Source of the DNA: Candidatus Woesearchaeota archaeon
GTDB taxonomy: Archaea; Nanobdellota; Nanobdellia; Woesearchaeales; JACJVW01
Direction: 5' to 3'
Length of the DNA stretch: 32,000 nucleotides
NCBI GenBank assembly: GCA_046496745.1
Contig: JAWOGQ010000090.1
Location: 7,861 to 39,860, forward strand
Part shown: in pieces, positions 1 to 20,820 of the stretch
Layout: each line of letters starts with the position of its first letter
Position numbering within the stretch: the stretch's first letter is position 1
The notes under the pieces: generated by a model
What the model was told of the DNA's origin: nothing
The model's database searches: none
What the model saw: only the letters and a program-made list of their open reading frames with translations
Program-made: the position numbers and the translations under genes

Positions 1-642
1 ATCTCAAACCTTCTTGTGGGTAACCAGGGCCTTTTCAGGAGATTTCTCAAGCAGCGGCCTAAGGGGATGATACTGCTTCTTGATAATGCTGTAGCCTTGC
101 CAAGGAAGAGTTATGAATTGCTGCAATACTACTTTGATCAGGATTATATCAAGTCAATCGTTATAACAACAAAAGATCACAAGAAACTGGAGCTTCCAGG
201 AAGCCTTAAGGACAGGATTGGAAAACGGATTTTCAAGACCAAATCGCTATCCATGGACGAGGCTGTGGAACTTGTGCTTGACAGGCTGAACCAGGACCTG
301 ATCTCAAAGGATAACCTGGAGAAGCTGTTCATACTTTCAGACAAGAACATGAAGAAGTTCCTTGCAAACTGTGAGACAGTCCTCAAGTACATGGTGGACA
401 ATGATCTTGAAGAGATCGATTTCAAGACAATAAGCAAGGTTGCCGGAAATGACGAGGGAGATGAGGATGAAGAGGATGTCTTTATCTGCACAGAATGCGG
501 TGAAGAGCTTGTCAAGGTAGGTGAGCATTACAGGTGCAAGAACTGTGACATGTATTGTCCGGTCTGTGGAGTGCTTATTGAGGAAGAAGATTATGAATGC
601 CCAAACTGTGGTGTGCAGTTTGAAGATGAAGAGGATGAGTAA
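1..642 (+). CDS. AAA+ ATPase paralog (ORC/Cdc6- or ExeA-like, AAA_22-type), 5'-truncated by the window edge, with acidic linker and C-terminal double zinc ribbon
   Basis: The frame is open from base 1, so the GTG at 16 is probably internal. A Walker-B-like KGMILLLDNA lies near the start and no Walker A is present in the window. It aligns by eye (~30% identity) with the downstream paralog at 644..1333. The tail has four Cys pairs (CTEC, CKNC, CPVC, CPNC) after a DEGDEDEED linker. Confidence 0.6.
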   Translation: MSNLLVGNQGLFRRFLKQRPKGMILLLDNAVALPRKSYELLQYYFDQDYIKSIVITTKDHKKLELPGSLKDRIGKRIFKTKSLSMDEAVELVLDRLNQDLISKDNLEKLFILSDKNMKKFLANCETVLKYMVDNDLEEIDFKTISKVAGNDEGDEDEEDVFICTECGEELVKVGEHYRCKNCDMYCPVCGVLIEEEDYECPNCGVQFEDEEDE

Positions 643-2160: not shown

Positions 2161-2176
2161 AAAAAATATTTAAGAA
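2161..2176 (+). promoter_or_regulatory. possible TATA-containing promoter of the 2210-6956 operon
   Basis: AAAAAATATTTAAGAA lies ~40 nt upstream of GTG 2210. This would leave a short leader carrying the GGGGGG Shine-Dalgarno-like run at 2199-2204. Confidence 0.3.
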
Positions 2177-2209: not shown

Positions 2210-4696
2210 GTGGACTTTACTGAAGCATTAAAGCATATTGATGATTTCACTTTCTCTAAAGATATCTCAGATTATCTTGATTCAGAGATAGATAAATATT
2301 CTAATGGTGGTTATGTCAGGCTTTCTGATCTTGTAAGTATGATTGATGAGAATCTTTATCGGAGTATCCGACCAGAAACTGTTGTAAAAAAGGAGGAAGC
2401 ACAGAAAGCATTGCGTTCAATCATGCTTGAGCATCCAGAGGGATTCGGTGATTATATGCAGAATCTTGAGGAACGTCTGGAGGTTCAGGCTGATCCTTCT
2501 CAAGACTATAGTTCTATGCTTGAGCATTATGCGCGACAGAATCGGCAGAAAAGTAATGATGCGGTTCCATTGTCCAGGCTGGTCAGCCTGTTCTATGATG
2601 ACCCAAATCCTAATACTGTAAAGAATAAGGTCTATAATGTAAAGCCCCATCTCCTGGAGGACCTGGAGGATAAGCTTATCTGCAAGACTTCAAGGGTATC
2701 GGTGCCTATGGAGAATGTTGAGGAAGTGGTTGGTGAAATATCAGCCCATTTCCATGAAACTGCATGGGATAATGTCATGGCTAACCTTTCCAGGGAAGTC
2801 TCCAGTATTGATGCTTTGACTTATAAGCCTGATAAGACAAGGAATAAGTCCAGTATTGATACTTTTGATAGGCAGGAGAACACTGACGAGAAATGGAATG
2901 AGGAGGAACAGTTCAATGTTGGTGCTTTTGATGGTCAGGCATATAATGAGAACCATTTCAGTGATGAATTGAATGCTTATTGCCAGGATAACCTTCAAAG
3001 GGGAATGATCCCTTTTAGCAGTCTCCTGGCATTGTTCTATCCTAAAAATGCCCGGCAGGCTGTATTTGCACGGACCAACAGGATAAAGGAGGAATTGAAG
3101 GAAGGCAAATTGACTTATCTACAGGATAAATCAGAGATAATAACAACAGGGCGAAATGAGAAGCTTATGGTTCATCCTGATTATGCTCCTGATGTGGTAA
3201 GGTATTTCATGACAGATAATGAAAGGTTAGATCATTTCCGGAAGAATATTTCTTATGCTAATAGGTCGGCTAATAGCTCAGGGATGTCTGATGCTTCTTT
3301 AGAATCATGCATCAGGAAAAAATTCTCCTCGTTTGAAACACATGAACAGGATTACATGCTTGAAAATCTTAATGGCGAGTATAGTCCTTTGAAGTTGCTA
3401 CATGCATCAGTGGATGCTTATCTTGAGATGCCTGCCAGTGAAAGAAGCCATTACAGCAGGAAAGAGGCTGTATCTTATGTATCAGATAAGCTTGGTATTG
3501 ATCCAGAAGATGCTAATGAGATCATACCTGGTGAGTTCTTGTTTCGCGTGGTAGCGACAAGGGATCTTGTGGACAAGAAAAAGCTTGAAGATTTTCTGGC
3601 TGAAACTAATTATTCTGAAAAGCCTGAAGTGACTGGAATTCCAGGTAACCCAGTATCTCCTGCATCGTCTTATGAATCAGCAGATTCCTCTGCAGGAATG
3701 GCGATTGCTCCTGATAAGGATTTGCCTGAATCTTCTGAAGATAAAACCTTATCCTCTGATAAATCATTTTCAGGAGAAGATACTATTCTTGTCAAAGACC
3801 CTGAAACAAGATCTATCTATGATGAAAGTCCTGATTCTTCCGATTCTGTCAAAGACCCTGGAATTGATACTACTTATGATAAACCTGCTACATTACCTGA
3901 ATCCTTTGGTAAATCAACTGGATCCTTTGATAAATCAGTTGAATCTTTTGAAGGGTTAGATGATACTGCTCCTGTTAAAGATTCTGAGATAGCTGATACT
4001 GTTCATGGTCCTGAGACAATTGATATCACTTATGATAAGGGTTCTTCCGATTCAGTTCAAGGGCCTGAGATAATATCCCGGGAGAAGCTTTATGCAACTA
4101 ATGCAAAAAAGTTTCTCAAACAAGTGAATCCTTATCTTTCGCCTGCGCTTATAGATGATATCCTTAGAAGGGCGGATAATACGGTCGAGAAACAGCGAAA
4201 GTTTTTTACCACCTCTGCTTTGATTGATAGTTTCCTGCAGATGGAGGATTGCCAGTTTGAGGAACTAAGAATCAAGGAACAGTATTCCTTAGCACCAAAC
4301 GAGGTCGTTGGTTATGTGGATCATTCACGTTTTGTTGATTCTTTGCCAAAGGAGGAACTTGAGCAATTTGGTTCCCTGAATTCCTTCATAATAAAACACA
4401 GGTTAACCGGGCCTTATACAAGGAATGGAAATGTTTGCAGGGCATCATATGACTTATTGAAGGACCATCTTAAGGTATCAATCAAGAGTATCCCTGAGTA
4501 CCAGCCGCCTACATGGATGGCAGGAGAAACAGAATACACTGATTTTAAGGGTGCGGTTGACATGATGGGAATACGGATGAGCGAGTTTACAAAATACGCT
4601 GATAGATTCACACTTGAGGATTTTGGGGTCACTGGAGTCCCTTTGCATGAAGTCATTGATATAAAGAACAGGGAGCTTTCAAATGGGATTAAATGA
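2210..4696 (+). CDS. large hypothetical protein (828 aa), upstream partner of the sigma-70-like gene
   Basis: A long uninterrupted ORF with a GTG start preceded by GGGGGG, overlapping the downstream gene by 14 nt. It contains two copies of a ~30-aa [VI]P.S.L..LFY module (nt 2564-2659 and 3008-3100). It also has a Ser/Asp/Pro-rich degenerate-repeat region (nt ~3617-4075) and a C-terminal HTH-like segment (IRMSEFTKYADRF). No known family recognised by eye. Confidence 0.8.
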   Translation: MDFTEALKHIDDFTFSKDISDYLDSEIDKYSNGGYVRLSDLVSMIDENLYRSIRPETVVKKEEAQKALRSIMLEHPEGFGDYMQNLEERLEVQADPSQDYSSMLEHYARQNRQKSNDAVPLSRLVSLFYDDPNPNTVKNKVYNVKPHLLEDLEDKLICKTSRVSVPMENVEEVVGEISAHFHETAWDNVMANLSREVSSIDALTYKPDKTRNKSSIDTFDRQENTDEKWNEEEQFNVGAFDGQAYNENHFSDELNAYCQDNLQRGMIPFSSLLALFYPKNARQAVFARTNRIKEELKEGKLTYLQDKSEIITTGRNEKLMVHPDYAPDVVRYFMTDNERLDHFRKNISYANRSANSSGMSDASLESCIRKKFSSFETHEQDYMLENLNGEYSPLKLLHASVDAYLEMPASERSHYSRKEAVSYVSDKLGIDPEDANEIIPGEFLFRVVATRDLVDKKKLEDFLAETNYSEKPEVTGIPGNPVSPASSYESADSSAGMAIAPDKDLPESSEDKTLSSDKSFSGEDTILVKDPETRSIYDESPDSSDSVKDPGIDTTYDKPATLPESFGKSTGSFDKSVESFEGLDDTAPVKDSEIADTVHGPETIDITYDKGSSDSVQGPEIISREKLYATNAKKFLKQVNPYLSPALIDDILRRADNTVEKQRKFFTTSALIDSFLQMEDCQFEELRIKEQYSLAPNEVVGYVDHSRFVDSLPKEELEQFGSLNSFIIKHRLTGPYTRNGNVCRASYDLLKDHLKVSIKSIPEYQPPTWMAGETEYTDFKGAVDMMGIRMSEFTKYADRFTLEDFGVTGVPLHEVIDIKNRELSNGIK

Positions 4697-6956
4697 TTTG
4701 TTGACGGTTGAGGATACTAAATGGGTGCATGAACAACAGCTTATAGATTATGGCATGAAAGGGTATCTTAACAAGCTTGTATGGTCAAAGGATGATGAGC
4801 ATGGTTCATCTTATCTTGCATGCGAGGTAAAAGGCATGCTCCTGAGAGAAGGGCTTGTCTCGCGTAATGGTTATAGCGGGTTTGTTGATCCGCTGAAGCT
4901 TGCAACAACACTTGCGAGAAATTATGATATGAGTGTGGGACAGATTCTCGGAAGAATCGAGGAAGATCAGAGTTTATGGGACGAATATGTGGAAGATAAT
5001 CAGATACAAAGGGGGGTTCCTGCTGAGCGTGTGAGCGACTTATTCTATGGGAAGAGCCAGAAGTTCTCGATTGAGCATATGGATCGTGTGAATACTGCTG
5101 TAAAAGAAGATATCCCTCCTATATCTATAGATAGCACGAATTGCAACCCATTCCAGGCGCTGGCTTATCTACTTGAGAATGTGGGTAAGAAGAGTGCAGA
5201 AGAGATGGCATATGAGATCGGAGAGGATACAACAAAGATTGAGCTTTTTCTCTATAAGAATGATTTTTTAGTGCTTACAGAGGATGAATTGAGTGAGAGG
5301 CTGGCAAGATACAAGAAAGGGGATGTCGAGTTTCCAAGTACTTTCTCAGATAAATATGATGACATGTCAATCTCTGAGTTCGTGAAAAAGACAAATGTCT
5401 CTTATGGGGATACGCTGAAGCTTACGCATGCAGGATTACTGGAGAGTTATGTCACTTATCTGAAATCTGAACATACTGGTTCTCATCCGGTGCATAAGAT
5501 TACAGGAAGAAGCATAATCTATCATCTGAGAGAATTGCGTAACGAGGAATACCAGAAAAAGGTTGACGAGGCACTTGCTATAGATGATATCCCCTGGGAC
5601 AATAAGAAGGGAAAAGAGTTGGATTCATGGTCAAAATATGGAGTCTCTCCTTTCAAGAGACATATCAACCAGCTGAAAAAGATTCCTGTCTTCACGAGGG
5701 AAGAGGAAAAGGCACACTTTGAAAAGATAAATCAGGAGAAAGATAATATCCTATCTGAGGTGGCTTCAACAAAATATATGCAGTCTGAACTCGAAAAGTT
5801 ATGTGAGCATGCAGAGAAGGGTTCAAGGGGATTCTTGAGAGCTTATCATCATAAGATACTCGATGGAGCAGATGTTGAAGAAGTAAGGGAGAACTTTCTT
5901 GAACAGTACTCCAGGTTTAAAGAAGGGGAGGCTGATGTGAGATCCCTTGATCTGTCATACCGGATAACAGAGAGGGTTGTCAGGAATCTGAAGAATGTAT
6001 GCTGGGATCTCAGGATACTGGATCAGAAGAAGGCTACTTTTGATGAACAGATAAACAGGGTAGGTTCTGCATCTGATCATGAATTGGCAAGGCGGGTGAA
6101 GTATAATCGACAGATGTCAAGAAAAATTCAGGGCAAAAAGGAAAGTCTACTTAATGATTTTGAGATGACGCAGGAGGAGCTTGAAAGCAAGATGGAAAGG
6201 ATTGTATCAAGTGAGGCCAATATCGAACACCTTACGCATGAACTTGTCCTGAGGAATGCCAGGATCCTGTCATACATGTCTTTGCCTCATCAATATTCTT
6301 ATTCAGTAGAGGGTCTTATGCATGCTGCTGAGTTGTTCGATCCGAAAAAGGGTAACAGGTTCATGACATATGCTCTTTCCTGGATCAGACAGAGCATTAA
6401 GCGTTCAAAGCATAATACCGGGTCTACAATCAGAAAACCAGTCCATATATGGAGTAAGGTTGAGGCCATGACTGAGACAGAGATAGATTTCATGCATCAA
6501 TACAAGCGGCCACCTACCATGAAGGAGCACTGGAAGGTATACAATGAGAAATCAGAGGAGGATATCTCTTTCAAGAGATTCCAGGAACTCAAGATAATTG
6601 CTGCAGATACTGTTTCTTTGGATTCTCCTGTTAATGGAGGCAACAGTTTTGAGAGAAATGAGAGTAGCCTGATCGATTTTATCGAAGGAAAGGGCAGCGA
6701 GCATTACCTGACTCCTGAGAAATTAGTCGAGAAAAATCAATTAAAGGACAGAACTCAAAAACTGATGGCTGAACTGACTGCAAGGGAATCAAAAGTCCTT
6801 CGCATGCGTTTTGGTATAGGTTATGAGCCGCATTCTCTTGAAGAGGTAGGATCTGACCTTGAAGTCACAAGGGAGCGTGTCAGACAGTTGGAAAAGAAAG
6901 GTCTCAATAAACTCAAGCATTACAAAAGGTCGAGGCAACTCAAGCCTTTTTCATAG
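4683..6956 (+). CDS. sigma-70-family protein (regions 1.2, 2, 3, 4 present) with a novel ~320-aa N-terminal extension
   Basis: Region 1.2: SPFKRHINQLKKIPVFTREEEKAHFEKI. Region 2: GNRFMTYALSWIRQSIKRS...STIRKPVH. Region 4: LTARESKVLRMRFGIGYEPHSLEEVGSDLEVTRERVRQLEKKGLNKLKH, near-identical to the RpoD LTAREAKVLRMRFGI...LEEVG..F.VTRERIRQIE.KALRKLRH. AGGGAG lies 8 nt upstream of ATG 4683. The frame has a stop at 4662-4664, so 4683 is the first possible start. Confidence 0.9.
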   Translation: MGLNDLLTVEDTKWVHEQQLIDYGMKGYLNKLVWSKDDEHGSSYLACEVKGMLLREGLVSRNGYSGFVDPLKLATTLARNYDMSVGQILGRIEEDQSLWDEYVEDNQIQRGVPAERVSDLFYGKSQKFSIEHMDRVNTAVKEDIPPISIDSTNCNPFQALAYLLENVGKKSAEEMAYEIGEDTTKIELFLYKNDFLVLTEDELSERLARYKKGDVEFPSTFSDKYDDMSISEFVKKTNVSYGDTLKLTHAGLLESYVTYLKSEHTGSHPVHKITGRSIIYHLRELRNEEYQKKVDEALAIDDIPWDNKKGKELDSWSKYGVSPFKRHINQLKKIPVFTREEEKAHFEKINQEKDNILSEVASTKYMQSELEKLCEHAEKGSRGFLRAYHHKILDGADVEEVRENFLEQYSRFKEGEADVRSLDLSYRITERVVRNLKNVCWDLRILDQKKATFDEQINRVGSASDHELARRVKYNRQMSRKIQGKKESLLNDFEMTQEELESKMERIVSSEANIEHLTHELVLRNARILSYMSLPHQYSYSVEGLMHAAELFDPKKGNRFMTYALSWIRQSIKRSKHNTGSTIRKPVHIWSKVEAMTETEIDFMHQYKRPPTMKEHWKVYNEKSEEDISFKRFQELKIIAADTVSLDSPVNGGNSFERNESSLIDFIEGKGSEHYLTPEKLVEKNQLKDRTQKLMAELTARESKVLRMRFGIGYEPHSLEEVGSDLEVTRERVRQLEKKGLNKLKHYKRSRQLKPFS

Positions 6957-7175: not shown

Positions 7176-7841
7176 ATGTTTGAAACAGATATAAACCTGG
7201 CAAAAAGATTCATGGATGCTCATCTCCAGGGTGCTGAACTTGTTCTTGTGACTGGTTCAAGGGTCTTTGGTATAACAGAGAGCGATTTTGACCTTTGCGT
7301 GGTAGGGGATTTTTCCGAAGAAGAACTTCGTCGTTATACAAAGTTTGTCACTCTTGAAAAAAAGGTATTCTCAGGTGTTGAGTTTGAGGTACAGGTGGTC
7401 TCATGGGATGAGATCGAAAAGGCTATGGGGAATTATCTTTCCTGGGAAGCATGGCATTTCCATAATGCTTATGTGTTGCATGATCCTTCTGGAAGGTTTG
7501 AAAAACTTAAAGGGCCTTTTCCTGAGTGTAAGGAGGATATGCTGAGGCTCTATGAGCATGCATATGACAGCGTGAAGAACGCGAGAAAAGCGCACATGAG
7601 AGGGATGTATGCTACAGAGGCATCACACAGTTCAGAGGCTCTGCAATATTCATTGTCAGTGCTTTTCTTGTTGAACCGCTCGTATATCCCGCCTGTAAAA
7701 TGGAGGCTTTACTTGTCCGCTAACCTTGAAAAGACGGTCCCTTACGAGGAATCATACATGCTTGAGCAGGTAGAAAGCTTTCTTGAGGGTGTGCGAAAGC
7801 TCCTGGCACAGGAGGTGCCTGTAGAAAGGGTAGAAGGATGA
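7176..7841 (+). CDS. Pol-beta-superfamily nucleotidyltransferase domain protein (KNTase-like, helical C-terminal half)
   Basis: GSRVFGITESDFDLCVVGD fits the minimal nucleotidyltransferase signature G[SG]-x(9-13)-[DE]x[DE]. The C-terminal ~120 aa look all-helical. Confidence 0.65.
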   Translation: MFETDINLAKRFMDAHLQGAELVLVTGSRVFGITESDFDLCVVGDFSEEELRRYTKFVTLEKKVFSGVEFEVQVVSWDEIEKAMGNYLSWEAWHFHNAYVLHDPSGRFEKLKGPFPECKEDMLRLYEHAYDSVKNARKAHMRGMYATEASHSSEALQYSLSVLFLLNRSYIPPVKWRLYLSANLEKTVPYEESYMLEQVESFLEGVRKLLAQEVPVERVEG

Positions 7842-20197: not shown

Positions 20198-20503
20198 TAA
20201 TCTGTGTCTTTTTAAATAATTAACTGGTTTCAGGGTGTGGTTTATAAAGATAAGTATAAAAATAAGCTTTTAAATTAAATCTAATAAAAGAATTTAAATA
20301 AGTTTCTATCTAGGGTTTTTTAGAAGGTTTAAAAAAAGAATAAATAAGAATATAAAATAAAGTATAAAAAATAAGTAAGAAAAGGTAATCTAATAAAGTA
20401 TTAAATAAAGGGTTTAAATAATAACTTAAATAATATCTAAAATAATAGATAATATAAAAGCAAAAATAATATAAATAAGCAGAATAAATATAATTATAGA
20501 AAG
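20198..20503. repeat. extremely AT-rich intergenic tract with dispersed short repeats
   Basis: By eye it is far more AT-rich than the rest of the window (not computed). A ~25-nt imperfect direct repeat occurs at 20277-20302 (AAATCTAATAAAAGAATTTAAATAAG) and 20386-20410 (TAATCTAATAAAGTATTAAATAAAG). There are at least five copies of AAATAAG. The flanking genes are divergent. Confidence 0.6.
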
Positions 20504-20652: not shown

Positions 20653-20820
20653 ATGAATACTACCACTTTCAGGAGGAAATTGTACAAAAGGGGTTCGAGT
20701 TATGAGACAACAATCCCGATGCCTCTATTGTTTGCAGTCGATAAGACCAAAAAGAATAATGTCTTGTTCGTGTATGATCGGGATCAGGACAGATGGTATA
20801 TCGAATTTGAGGAATCATGA
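20653..20820 (+). CDS. small AbrB/SpoVT-like DNA-binding protein (55 aa)
   Basis: MNTTTFRRKLYKRGSSYETTIPMPLLFAV resembles the swapped-hairpin AbrB/MazE N-terminal pattern (R.v.k.G.S...tIP...). TTTATATATAAG is centred 26 nt upstream of the ATG, implying a leaderless mRNA. Not in the supplied track (<60 aa). Confidence 0.5.
   Translation: MNTTTFRRKLYKRGSSYETTIPMPLLFAVDKTKKNNVLFVYDRDQDRWYIEFEES

Follow-up and report, generated by a model that had tools for sequence, protein, structure and literature searches.

An overlapping gene pair encoding an RpoD-like protein and a conserved upstream partner in a Candidatus Woesearchaeota archaeon

Introduction

Transcription initiation in archaea uses TBP, TFB and TFE, and sigma factors are, to our knowledge, not expected to take part in it. 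Here, we describe two overlapping genes in a stretch of 32,000 nucleotides from a Candidatus Woesearchaeota archaeon (contig JAWOGQ010000090.1, positions 7,861 to 39,860; called the window in the following and numbered from its first nucleotide), of which the second encodes a sigma-70-like protein and the first a partner protein of 828 aa. The strongest support for the pairing comes from the comparison of related loci, and we tentatively favor, at somewhat less than even confidence, a dedicated partner/sigma-like pair that was exapted in this archaeon to regulate by DNA binding, rather than a canonical sigma factor.

Sigma-70 genes as such have been reported from contigs of DPANN archaea, where they are most prevalent in Woesearchaeota, constitute family fam00359 and are not explained by mis-binning; no anti-sigma factor was found, and their control and role were called unclear (Castelle et al., 2021, PMC8204110). 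Further literature searches returned nothing more specific than that study. The locus described here represents the same phenomenon, and its subfamily may belong to fam00359. A conserved partner, an N-terminal extension of the sigma-like protein and shared changes in region 2, all seen here, are not described in the earlier study and appear to be new.

Four further groups of known systems are close enough to be compared. Group 1 sigma factors (RpoD/SigA) align with the C-terminal ~435 residues of the archaeal protein in a region 1.2-like segment as well as in regions 2.3-2.4, 3 and 4, and their RHPSRS-type tail and helical non-conserved region are present, too. In contrast to RpoD/SigA, however, the archaeal protein has an archaeal host, an unrelated extension of ~320 aa in place of region 1.1, a deletion in region 2.1/2.2 and an altered TWW motif. 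Bacterial sigma/anti-sigma pairs (extracytoplasmic function sigma factors with zinc-binding anti-sigma factors, SigB-RsbW, FliA-FlgM) resemble the locus in the conserved coupling to a dedicated neighbor, but here the partner is encoded upstream instead of downstream, is of very large size, containing repeats and a disordered linker, has no similarity to any anti-sigma family of Pfam and is only presumed to bind the sigma-like protein. MzaA (NCBIfam NF041931, PADLOC PDLC02203) is likewise a long (~700 aa) protein of the sigma-70 family with a large non-sigma N-terminal part; however, the N-terminal parts do not match, and no other Mza components are adjacent. Lastly, the winged-helix proteins RacA, BldC, PrtN and CzrA share their order of secondary structure elements with partner residues ~410-468 and extension residues 211-287. 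These matches are weak, with sub-threshold Pfam hits to Rv2175c_wHTH and MerR_2 leading in the same direction, and for MerR/excisionase- and ArsR-like domains no significant match was obtained (E 0.07-4), so that membership cannot be claimed.

Results and Discussion

A gene pair with conserved overlap

The pair and its putative expression signals comprise the following features, of which the promoter-like element, the G-run and the oligo-T run were read from the sequence:

2161..2174, forward strand: putative archaeal promoter element AAAAAATATTTAAG with B recognition element (BRE) and TATA box (TATA-like element at 2166-2173), located 36-49 nt before the GTG start codon
2199..2204, forward strand: G-run GGGGGG, Shine-Dalgarno-like, 5 nt before the GTG at 2210
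2210..4696, forward strand: partner gene, GTG start, 828 aa
4670..4675, forward strand: AGGGAG ribosome-binding site of the sigma-like gene, located within the partner gene, 7 nt before the ATG
4683..4696, forward strand: gene overlap of 14 nt (ATG of the sigma-like gene at 4683-4685, stop codon TGA of the partner gene at 4694-4696; sigma-like gene in the +1 frame)
4683..6956, forward strand: sigma-like gene, ATG start, 757 aa
6974..6979, forward strand: oligo-T run, 18 nt past the stop codon of the sigma-like gene

Both reading frames, their overlap and the internal AGGGAG site are found exactly where the initial annotation of this DNA had placed them. A near copy of the promoter-like element, AAAGTATTTAA, is present at 2106-2116, and the gene following the pair (start at 7176) has a TATA-like element of its own, TTTATATAA, at about 7146. 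Based on the BRE/TATA-like element and the G-run in front, the oligo-T run behind and the separate TATA-like element of the next gene, the pair looks bicistronic, with signals of archaeal type; AAAAAATATTTAAG is the putative promoter of both genes, and the oligo-T run likely represents the archaeal terminator closing the unit. In GC content, the pair is in line with the contig. No RNA gene was recognized in the window by Rfam or tRNA matches.

Judged by its gene content, the host contig is archaeal (Candidatus Woesearchaeota): it encodes Spt5 (TIGR00405), an archaeal-type L11, Elp3, FtsZ and ArgRS, all above the NCBIfam cut-offs. The homologous loci in other lineages encode L15e, TFE-alpha, a histone and Hjc.

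Relatives of the two proteins are rare. An exhaustive phmmer search against 1.8 billion representative proteins detected only P0008 and P0009 as relatives of the partner, and word-index searches returned one protein for the partner (itself), six for the sigma-like protein and four for a concatenated profile of the partner C-terminal domain and the sigma extension. No new locus of the family was present in GTDB species genomes, which contained only an already known contig (L004, the same as L002), and no relatives were found among JGI metagenome contigs and IMG/VR viral contigs. The sampling of the family consists of five lineages, all metagenomic and some at 4-5x coverage. Four of them (the window, L001/L002, L003 and L006/L008), and no others, encode the extended sigma-like protein, whose full-length homologs P0003, P0004 and P0010 are 44%, 40% and 28% identical to the one in the window. 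The fifth, L005/L007, has a collinear full-length homolog of the partner (composite open reading frame [ORF] of 812 aa).

In every lineage with the sigma-like gene (4/4), a homolog of the partner C-terminus is encoded immediately upstream, and the initial annotation, which had made adjacency in related genomes a touchstone for its proposal of a functional pair, is not contradicted in this respect. The upstream genes are 27-47% identical to partner residues ~620-828 (E 5e-15 to 2e-39), among them the truncated ORFs that precede the sigma-like gene in L001/L002 and L003 (36-47% identity, E 1e-37 to 1e-39), and they overlap the sigma-like gene by 14, 11, 8 and 8 nt in the window, L001/L002, L003 and L006/L008, respectively. 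In L001, L003 and L006, the corresponding position before the start of the sigma-like gene is occupied by a GGAG- or GGGTG-like motif. Divergence of both proteins proceeds in parallel, with 45/36/27% identity for the partner domain versus 44/40/28% for the sigma-like protein. The remaining neighborhood is unrelated between the loci, and the GC content of the lineages ranges from 27 to 46%. The L006 partner, P0009, has a length of 222 aa and consists only of the conserved C-terminal domain, without the repeat-bearing N-terminal half. Since the L006 partner is reduced to this domain and the domain is kept upstream, the conserved unit is, as far as these loci tell, the partner C-terminal domain together with the extended sigma-like protein. 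Thus, one archaeal sigma subfamily is always found with overlapping, apparently translationally coupled reading frames behind a specific and otherwise undescribed partner domain.

Two side observations concern these loci. L006 encodes a protein of 399 aa (P0013; L006 1877-3076) before the 222-aa partner, which contains several segments resembling helix-turn-helix (HTH) motifs (HTH_38, E 0.065). It was considered as the missing partner N-terminus, which was rejected as it has no detectable similarity to the N-terminal half of the window's partner; it may be a non-homologous stand-in. Further, L004, a contig of 2982 bp with the P0003 pair, was deposited as part of an uncultured Methanosarcinales bin. 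Either the family reaches beyond DPANN archaea or this short contig was mis-binned.

The sigma-like protein is a rebuilt RpoD relative

Four segments can be distinguished in the sigma-like protein:

4683..5648, forward strand: family-specific N-terminal extension, residues 1 to ~322, helical with several segments resembling HTH or winged HTH motifs, occupying the position of region 1.1
5649..6953, forward strand: RpoD-homologous part, residues ~323-757, with a region 1.2-like segment, the helical non-conserved region and regions 2, 3 and 4
6312..6407, forward strand: sigma region 2.3-2.4, residues 544-575 (Pfam Sigma70_r2)
6762..6920, forward strand: HTH of sigma region 4, residues 694-746 (Pfam Sigma70_r4)

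Sigma70_r4 (PF04545) was matched with 63.1 bits (cut-off 24.1, E 1.7e-17), Sigma70_r2 (PF04542) narrowly with 25.1 bits (cut-off 24, E 1.5e-5), the latter match spanning only model positions 33-64 of 71, i.e., the second half. The sigma-70 superfamily model TIGR02937 was passed as well (71.6 bits, cut-off 42.9). The closest NCBIfam model in the region of residues 323-756 is RpoD PRK05658 (E 1.2e-48), reaching 166.6 bits versus an equivalog cut-off of 555, and the RpoD_Cterm model stayed below its cut-off, too (154.8 bits versus 354). In a Foldseek search, the AlphaFold2 (AF2) model of the sigma-like protein retrieved the sigma70 chains of Escherichia coli and Vibrio holoenzymes with E ~1e-12 over ~490 columns; the predicted local distance difference test (pLDDT) is moderate in the sigma part (70-88), with a mean over the whole protein of 55 on a shallow alignment. 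Region 1.1 was not found, as neither PF03979 nor PF00140 of Pfam matched the sigma-like protein; the bacterial hits P0005-P0007 have both. The protein is regarded as RpoD-derived; it exceeds the superfamily cut-offs but misses those of RpoD and MzaA, and its region 2.2 is incomplete.

In bacterial sigma70, it is mainly the helix of region 2.1/2.2 that binds the beta-prime clamp helices of RNA polymerase, and the pair of Trp residues in the TWW motif of region 2.3 is the promoter-melting wedge. When the four archaeal members of the family were aligned with three RpoD-like proteins of bacteria, region 2.1/2.2 was shorter by 7-9 residues in all four archaeal members, the gap corresponding to the RpoD stretch (G)LQFLDLIQEGN. 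In place of the first Trp of the TWW motif, the archaeal proteins have Ser, Ser, Thr or His (Ser in the window's protein); the second Trp is retained. The RERVRQ recognition helix of region 4.2 is invariant in the family. From what is known of sigma70, the deletion together with the loss of the Trp would remove two core functions of a sigma factor. The sigma part has lost the segment and the Trp residue that are most closely linked with core binding and promoter melting in bacteria, and the DNA-reading helix is kept.

Within the sigma-like protein, conservation is highest in the N-terminal extension: its identity to P0003, P0004 and P0010 amounts to 47/42/33%, above the 42/38/25% of the sigma part. 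No Pfam family was matched by its ~320 aa; below the threshold, MerR_2 (E about 0.1, in two orthologs), TrmB and HTH_12 were seen. A profile search against PDB sequences aligned ArsR/CzrA chains with extension residues 211-287 at E 0.1-0.8, which is not significant, and searches of PDB sequences with the repeat, extension and concatenated profiles returned nothing better than E≥0.1. A relationship of the extension to TFE-alpha was considered and dropped (hhalign P 0.31).

These properties bear on whether the sigma-like protein is a genuine promoter-specificity subunit of the archaeal RNA polymerase, with the extension and/or the partner replacing the region 2.2 contact by docking to the archaeal clamp or to TBP/TFB. 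A bacterial RNA polymerase is not expected in an archaeon, regions 1.2, 2.3-2.4, 3.0-3.2 and 4 occur in order across the lineages with 25-42% identity, and the strong conservation of the extension would suit such a role, which was also left open by Castelle et al. (2021, PMC8204110). We nevertheless regard this role as distinctly unlikely: two core sigma functions would be taken away by the deletion and the loss of the melting-wedge Trp, the extension has no detectable similarity to TFE-alpha and matches no Pfam family, and promoter-like sites of the Sigma70 type show no enrichment in the window (28 versus 25.6 ± 4.6 in shuffled sequences). A related and slightly more doubtful version is that a bacterial-type sigma factor has been domesticated, with the partner docking or gating it, such that the archaeal RNA polymerase or the TBP/TFB complex acquires an alternative promoter specificity. 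If true, initiation would in this case be a bacterial/archaeal hybrid, served by a new class of sigma regulator of its own.

A mobile element or a defense system like the Mza anti-phage system was considered as well, since the MzaA model matches residues 323-756 with an E-value (6.7e-45) about equal to that of RpoD, and the PADLOC MzaA model with E 1.9e-24. The genomic context varies between the loci, L001 has an rve integrase gene directly downstream of the pair, and nucleotidyltransferase genes are found nearby in the window and in L008. However, the MzaA match reaches 154 bits versus a cut-off of 800 and involves the sigma part only; the partner and four other scanned genes of the window have no PADLOC match save a generic P-loop ATPase (ORF 521-1333). 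Further, viral contigs in IMG/VR and JGI metagenome contigs contain no relatives, and the flanking genes are housekeeping genes, all of which makes a mobile or defense function improbable.

The partner protein

An identical copy of the partner has been deposited as a hypothetical protein from a metagenome-assembled genome of Candidatus Woesearchaeota. The partner matches no family in Pfam, NCBIfam, PADLOC or PHROG. The following parts were delimited:

2510..2761, forward strand: repeat copy 1, residues 101-184, containing VPLSRLVSLFY (L005-only hidden Markov model [HMM] domain 103-133, six-repeat HMM 101-184)
2960..3229, forward strand: repeat copy 2, residues 251-340, containing IPFSSLLALFY (L005-only HMM domain 261-352)
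3290..3613, forward strand: middle domain, residues 361-468, winged-helix-like beta-alpha-alpha-beta-beta-alpha order in the AF2 model
3617..4069, forward strand: linker rich in Ser, Asp, Pro and Glu, residues ~470-620, probably disordered (pLDDT 23-30, no secondary structure)
3897..3951, forward strand: tandem repeat of 21 nt, 2.6 copies, within the linker (Tandem Repeats Finder)
4067..4693, forward strand: C-terminal domain, residues ~620-828, motif CRA.[FY]D.LKD.L...I..IPEY.PPTWM, always accompanying the sigma-like gene

The initial annotation had based the pairing on short modules repeated in both proteins. Its five peptide strings were located at 2564-2644, 3008-3088, 4571-4609, 5016-5096 and 5364-5417, with 3′ ends differing by a few nt. 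One module, proposed in three copies, is genuine in the partner: the two [VI]P..[RS].L..LFY units are the cores of a true repeat of ~90 aa. An HMM built from three repeats of the distant homolog in L005, without any sequence of the window, recovers them in the 828-aa protein with E 5.6e-12 (domain i-E 1.3e-7 for residues 261-352, and 0.027), and the L005/L007 homolog itself contains four such repeats spaced ~120 aa, matching each other at E ~1e-5. The third copy, in the sigma-like protein, found no support. Pairwise blastp gave E 0.034; a profile of six partner repeats, compared by hhalign with that of four sigma extensions, gave a probability of 1.1-1.5% (E 0.035-0.048, 19-42 columns); the six-repeat HMM scored 6.8 bits on the sigma-like protein, within the range of shuffled sequences; and the LFY core is not retained in the sigma-like orthologs, which have ELHN, ELCR and EFFT instead. 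The spot in the sigma extension scoring best against the repeat profile is always the same one, so a very remote kinship of repeat and extension may exist, which is unusable as evidence. The other module, an HTH-like M[SR].SEF unit, comes down to a resemblance over about six residues (profile-profile P 0.42, with the best alignment elsewhere). Since the profile-profile comparison is not significant, an outcome that the initial annotation itself had named as a refutation, shared repeated modules were abandoned as an argument for the pairing, and what stands of the proposed co-evolution and joint action is carried by the adjacency and overlap in four of four lineages and the parallel divergence.

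Residues 361-468 are the only confidently modeled part of the partner (AF2 pLDDT 65-86). This middle domain is homologous to residues 8-187 of P0008 (E 1.7e-9), and its beta-alpha-alpha-beta-beta-alpha order is of the excisionase/MerR winged-helix type. The C-terminal domain is matched by both P0008 and P0009. Foldseek searches of the partner model against PDB and BFVD gave no significant match, the weak ones being RacA, BldC, PrtN and phage HTH proteins with E above 0.2. The linker is missing from the 812-aa homolog of L005/L007, and its tandem repeat suggests that it grows through repeat expansion.

L005 and L007 are contigs of sister samples with 99.87% identity, and each has a different nonsense single-nucleotide polymorphism in the partner-like gene. 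Their four differences, at L005 1981, 2303, 2318 and 2321 (= L007 2819, 3141, 3156 and 3159), are all located in this gene. The nonsense differences are TGA versus TGG at codon 403 and TAG versus AAG at codon 516, and three differences fall within codons 511-517. They could be sequencing errors at 4-5x coverage, population variants or signs of incipient pseudogenization.

Two known identities were tried for the partner and rejected. No zf-CHC2, Toprim or DnaB-binding match of Pfam was found even at E≤1, in agreement with the initial annotation, which had recognized no known family and had dismissed DnaG. Likewise, no known family of anti-sigma factors was matched by the partner and its homologs in Pfam (E≤1) or NCBIfam (E≤0.1).

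The question of DnaG arises because rpoD follows dnaG in bacteria, so that the locus might be a decaying, functionless relic of a horizontally acquired dnaG-rpoD region. The region 2.2 deletion and the loss of the Trp indeed have a degenerative look, and nonsense variants occur in the partner homolog of L005/L007. Nevertheless, the partner has no primase domains according to Pfam, ORFs of more than 750 codons are intact in four lineages with GC contents of 27-46%, the extension and region 4 show strong conservation, and the pair does not differ from its contig in GC content. A relic is, therefore, very hard to credit.

Proposed function of the pair

Which function, then, would be consistent with a conserved overlap and a rebuilt sigma factor? 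The overlap kept in every lineage of the sigma subfamily, the parallel divergence and the one-domain partner of L006 argue for a dedicated pair, probably forming a complex. An archaeal host, a truncated region 2.2 and a missing melting Trp, combined with constraint on region 4.2 and the winged-helix-like extension, favor an exapted regulator. Accepting both, we propose a lineage-restricted module of two genes in DPANN archaea of the Woesearchaeota type, probably transcribed as one mRNA from the archaeal BRE/TATA promoter. The two reading frames, with their observed and conserved overlap and Shine-Dalgarno site, would be translated by termination-reinitiation coupling, such that the partner C-terminal domain of ~200 aa is produced in fixed proportion with the sigma-like protein. 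The second gene encodes a rebuilt, RpoD-derived protein in which the extension takes the place of region 1.1, region 2.1/2.2 is shortened and the Trp is lost, and which retains regions 2.3-2.4 and 3 and, above all, the recognition helix of region 4.2. The partner C-terminal domain would bind the sigma-like protein, most likely at the N-terminal extension, and the variable N-terminal part of the partner (repeats, winged-helix-like domain and acidic disordered linker) may serve as an accessory arm for binding DNA or protein. Most likely, the pair would then act as a sequence-specific DNA-binding transcription regulator, with the partner as its dedicated regulator or adaptor, in the niche held by anti-sigma or co-sigma proteins in bacteria. 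The anatomy of the locus, the homologies, the conserved coupling and the derived features of the sigma part are observed; complex formation, DNA binding and a regulatory role are proposed properties, deduced from comparative sequence data.

Several observations weigh against this proposal. All HTH and winged-HTH assignments, in the partner and in the extension, are below significance, and the AF2 pLDDT is below 50 across the extension and, on a shallow alignment, for most of the partner (mean 43). Regions 2.3-3.2 are retained, and contact with RNA polymerase could, therefore, still be needed. The family is tiny and known from low-coverage metagenome contigs alone. Lastly, the full-length partner homolog of L005/L007 has a histone gene behind it and Hjc and TFE-alpha in front, and on the available contig no sigma gene comes directly after it, which indicates that the partner can act on its own.

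This last observation would also be expected if the two genes were adjacent but independent, the overlap being a consequence of compact DPANN genomes and the partner a chromatin or DNA-binding protein with a role of its own; the failure to detect shared modules in partner and sigma-like protein points the same way. However, independence does not easily account for a pair with start/stop overlap in all four sigma-like lineages despite wholly different neighborhoods, for the parallel divergence, or for an L006 partner cut down to exactly the conserved C-terminal domain. We consider independent genes unlikely, though worth keeping in mind.

If the proposal of a dedicated regulatory pair is correct, the partner would be the first candidate regulator of archaeal sigma-70 factors. 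The coupling, the losses in region 2 and the conserved extension would make a defined system of two proteins out of what has been a vague curiosity.

Neighborhood of the pair

Directly upstream of the pair, two tandem paralogous P-loop ATPase genes are found in the window (16-642 and ~635-1333), for which only generic matches (AAA, STAND, clamp-loader) were obtained. The first has zinc ribbons at its end; the second is followed by a separate zinc-ribbon ORF of 68 aa (1374-1580). In two lineages, the sigma-like gene has a Pol-beta-type nucleotidyltransferase gene a short distance downstream, i.e., a DUF4037 protein in the window (7176-7841) and an NTP_transf_2/Polbeta protein in L008 (3315-3893, minus strand), which may be coincidence. 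The integrase gene of L001 (3096-3866, rve family, insertion sequence element), directly downstream of the sigma-like gene, was seen in this lineage only. Further away, an AT-rich intergenic stretch at 20200-20500 of the window (GC about 0.33) contains degenerate A-rich tandem repeats of 12 nt without an Rfam match, and is followed by a small ORF (20653-20820) whose N-terminus is AbrB/SpoVT-like in appearance.

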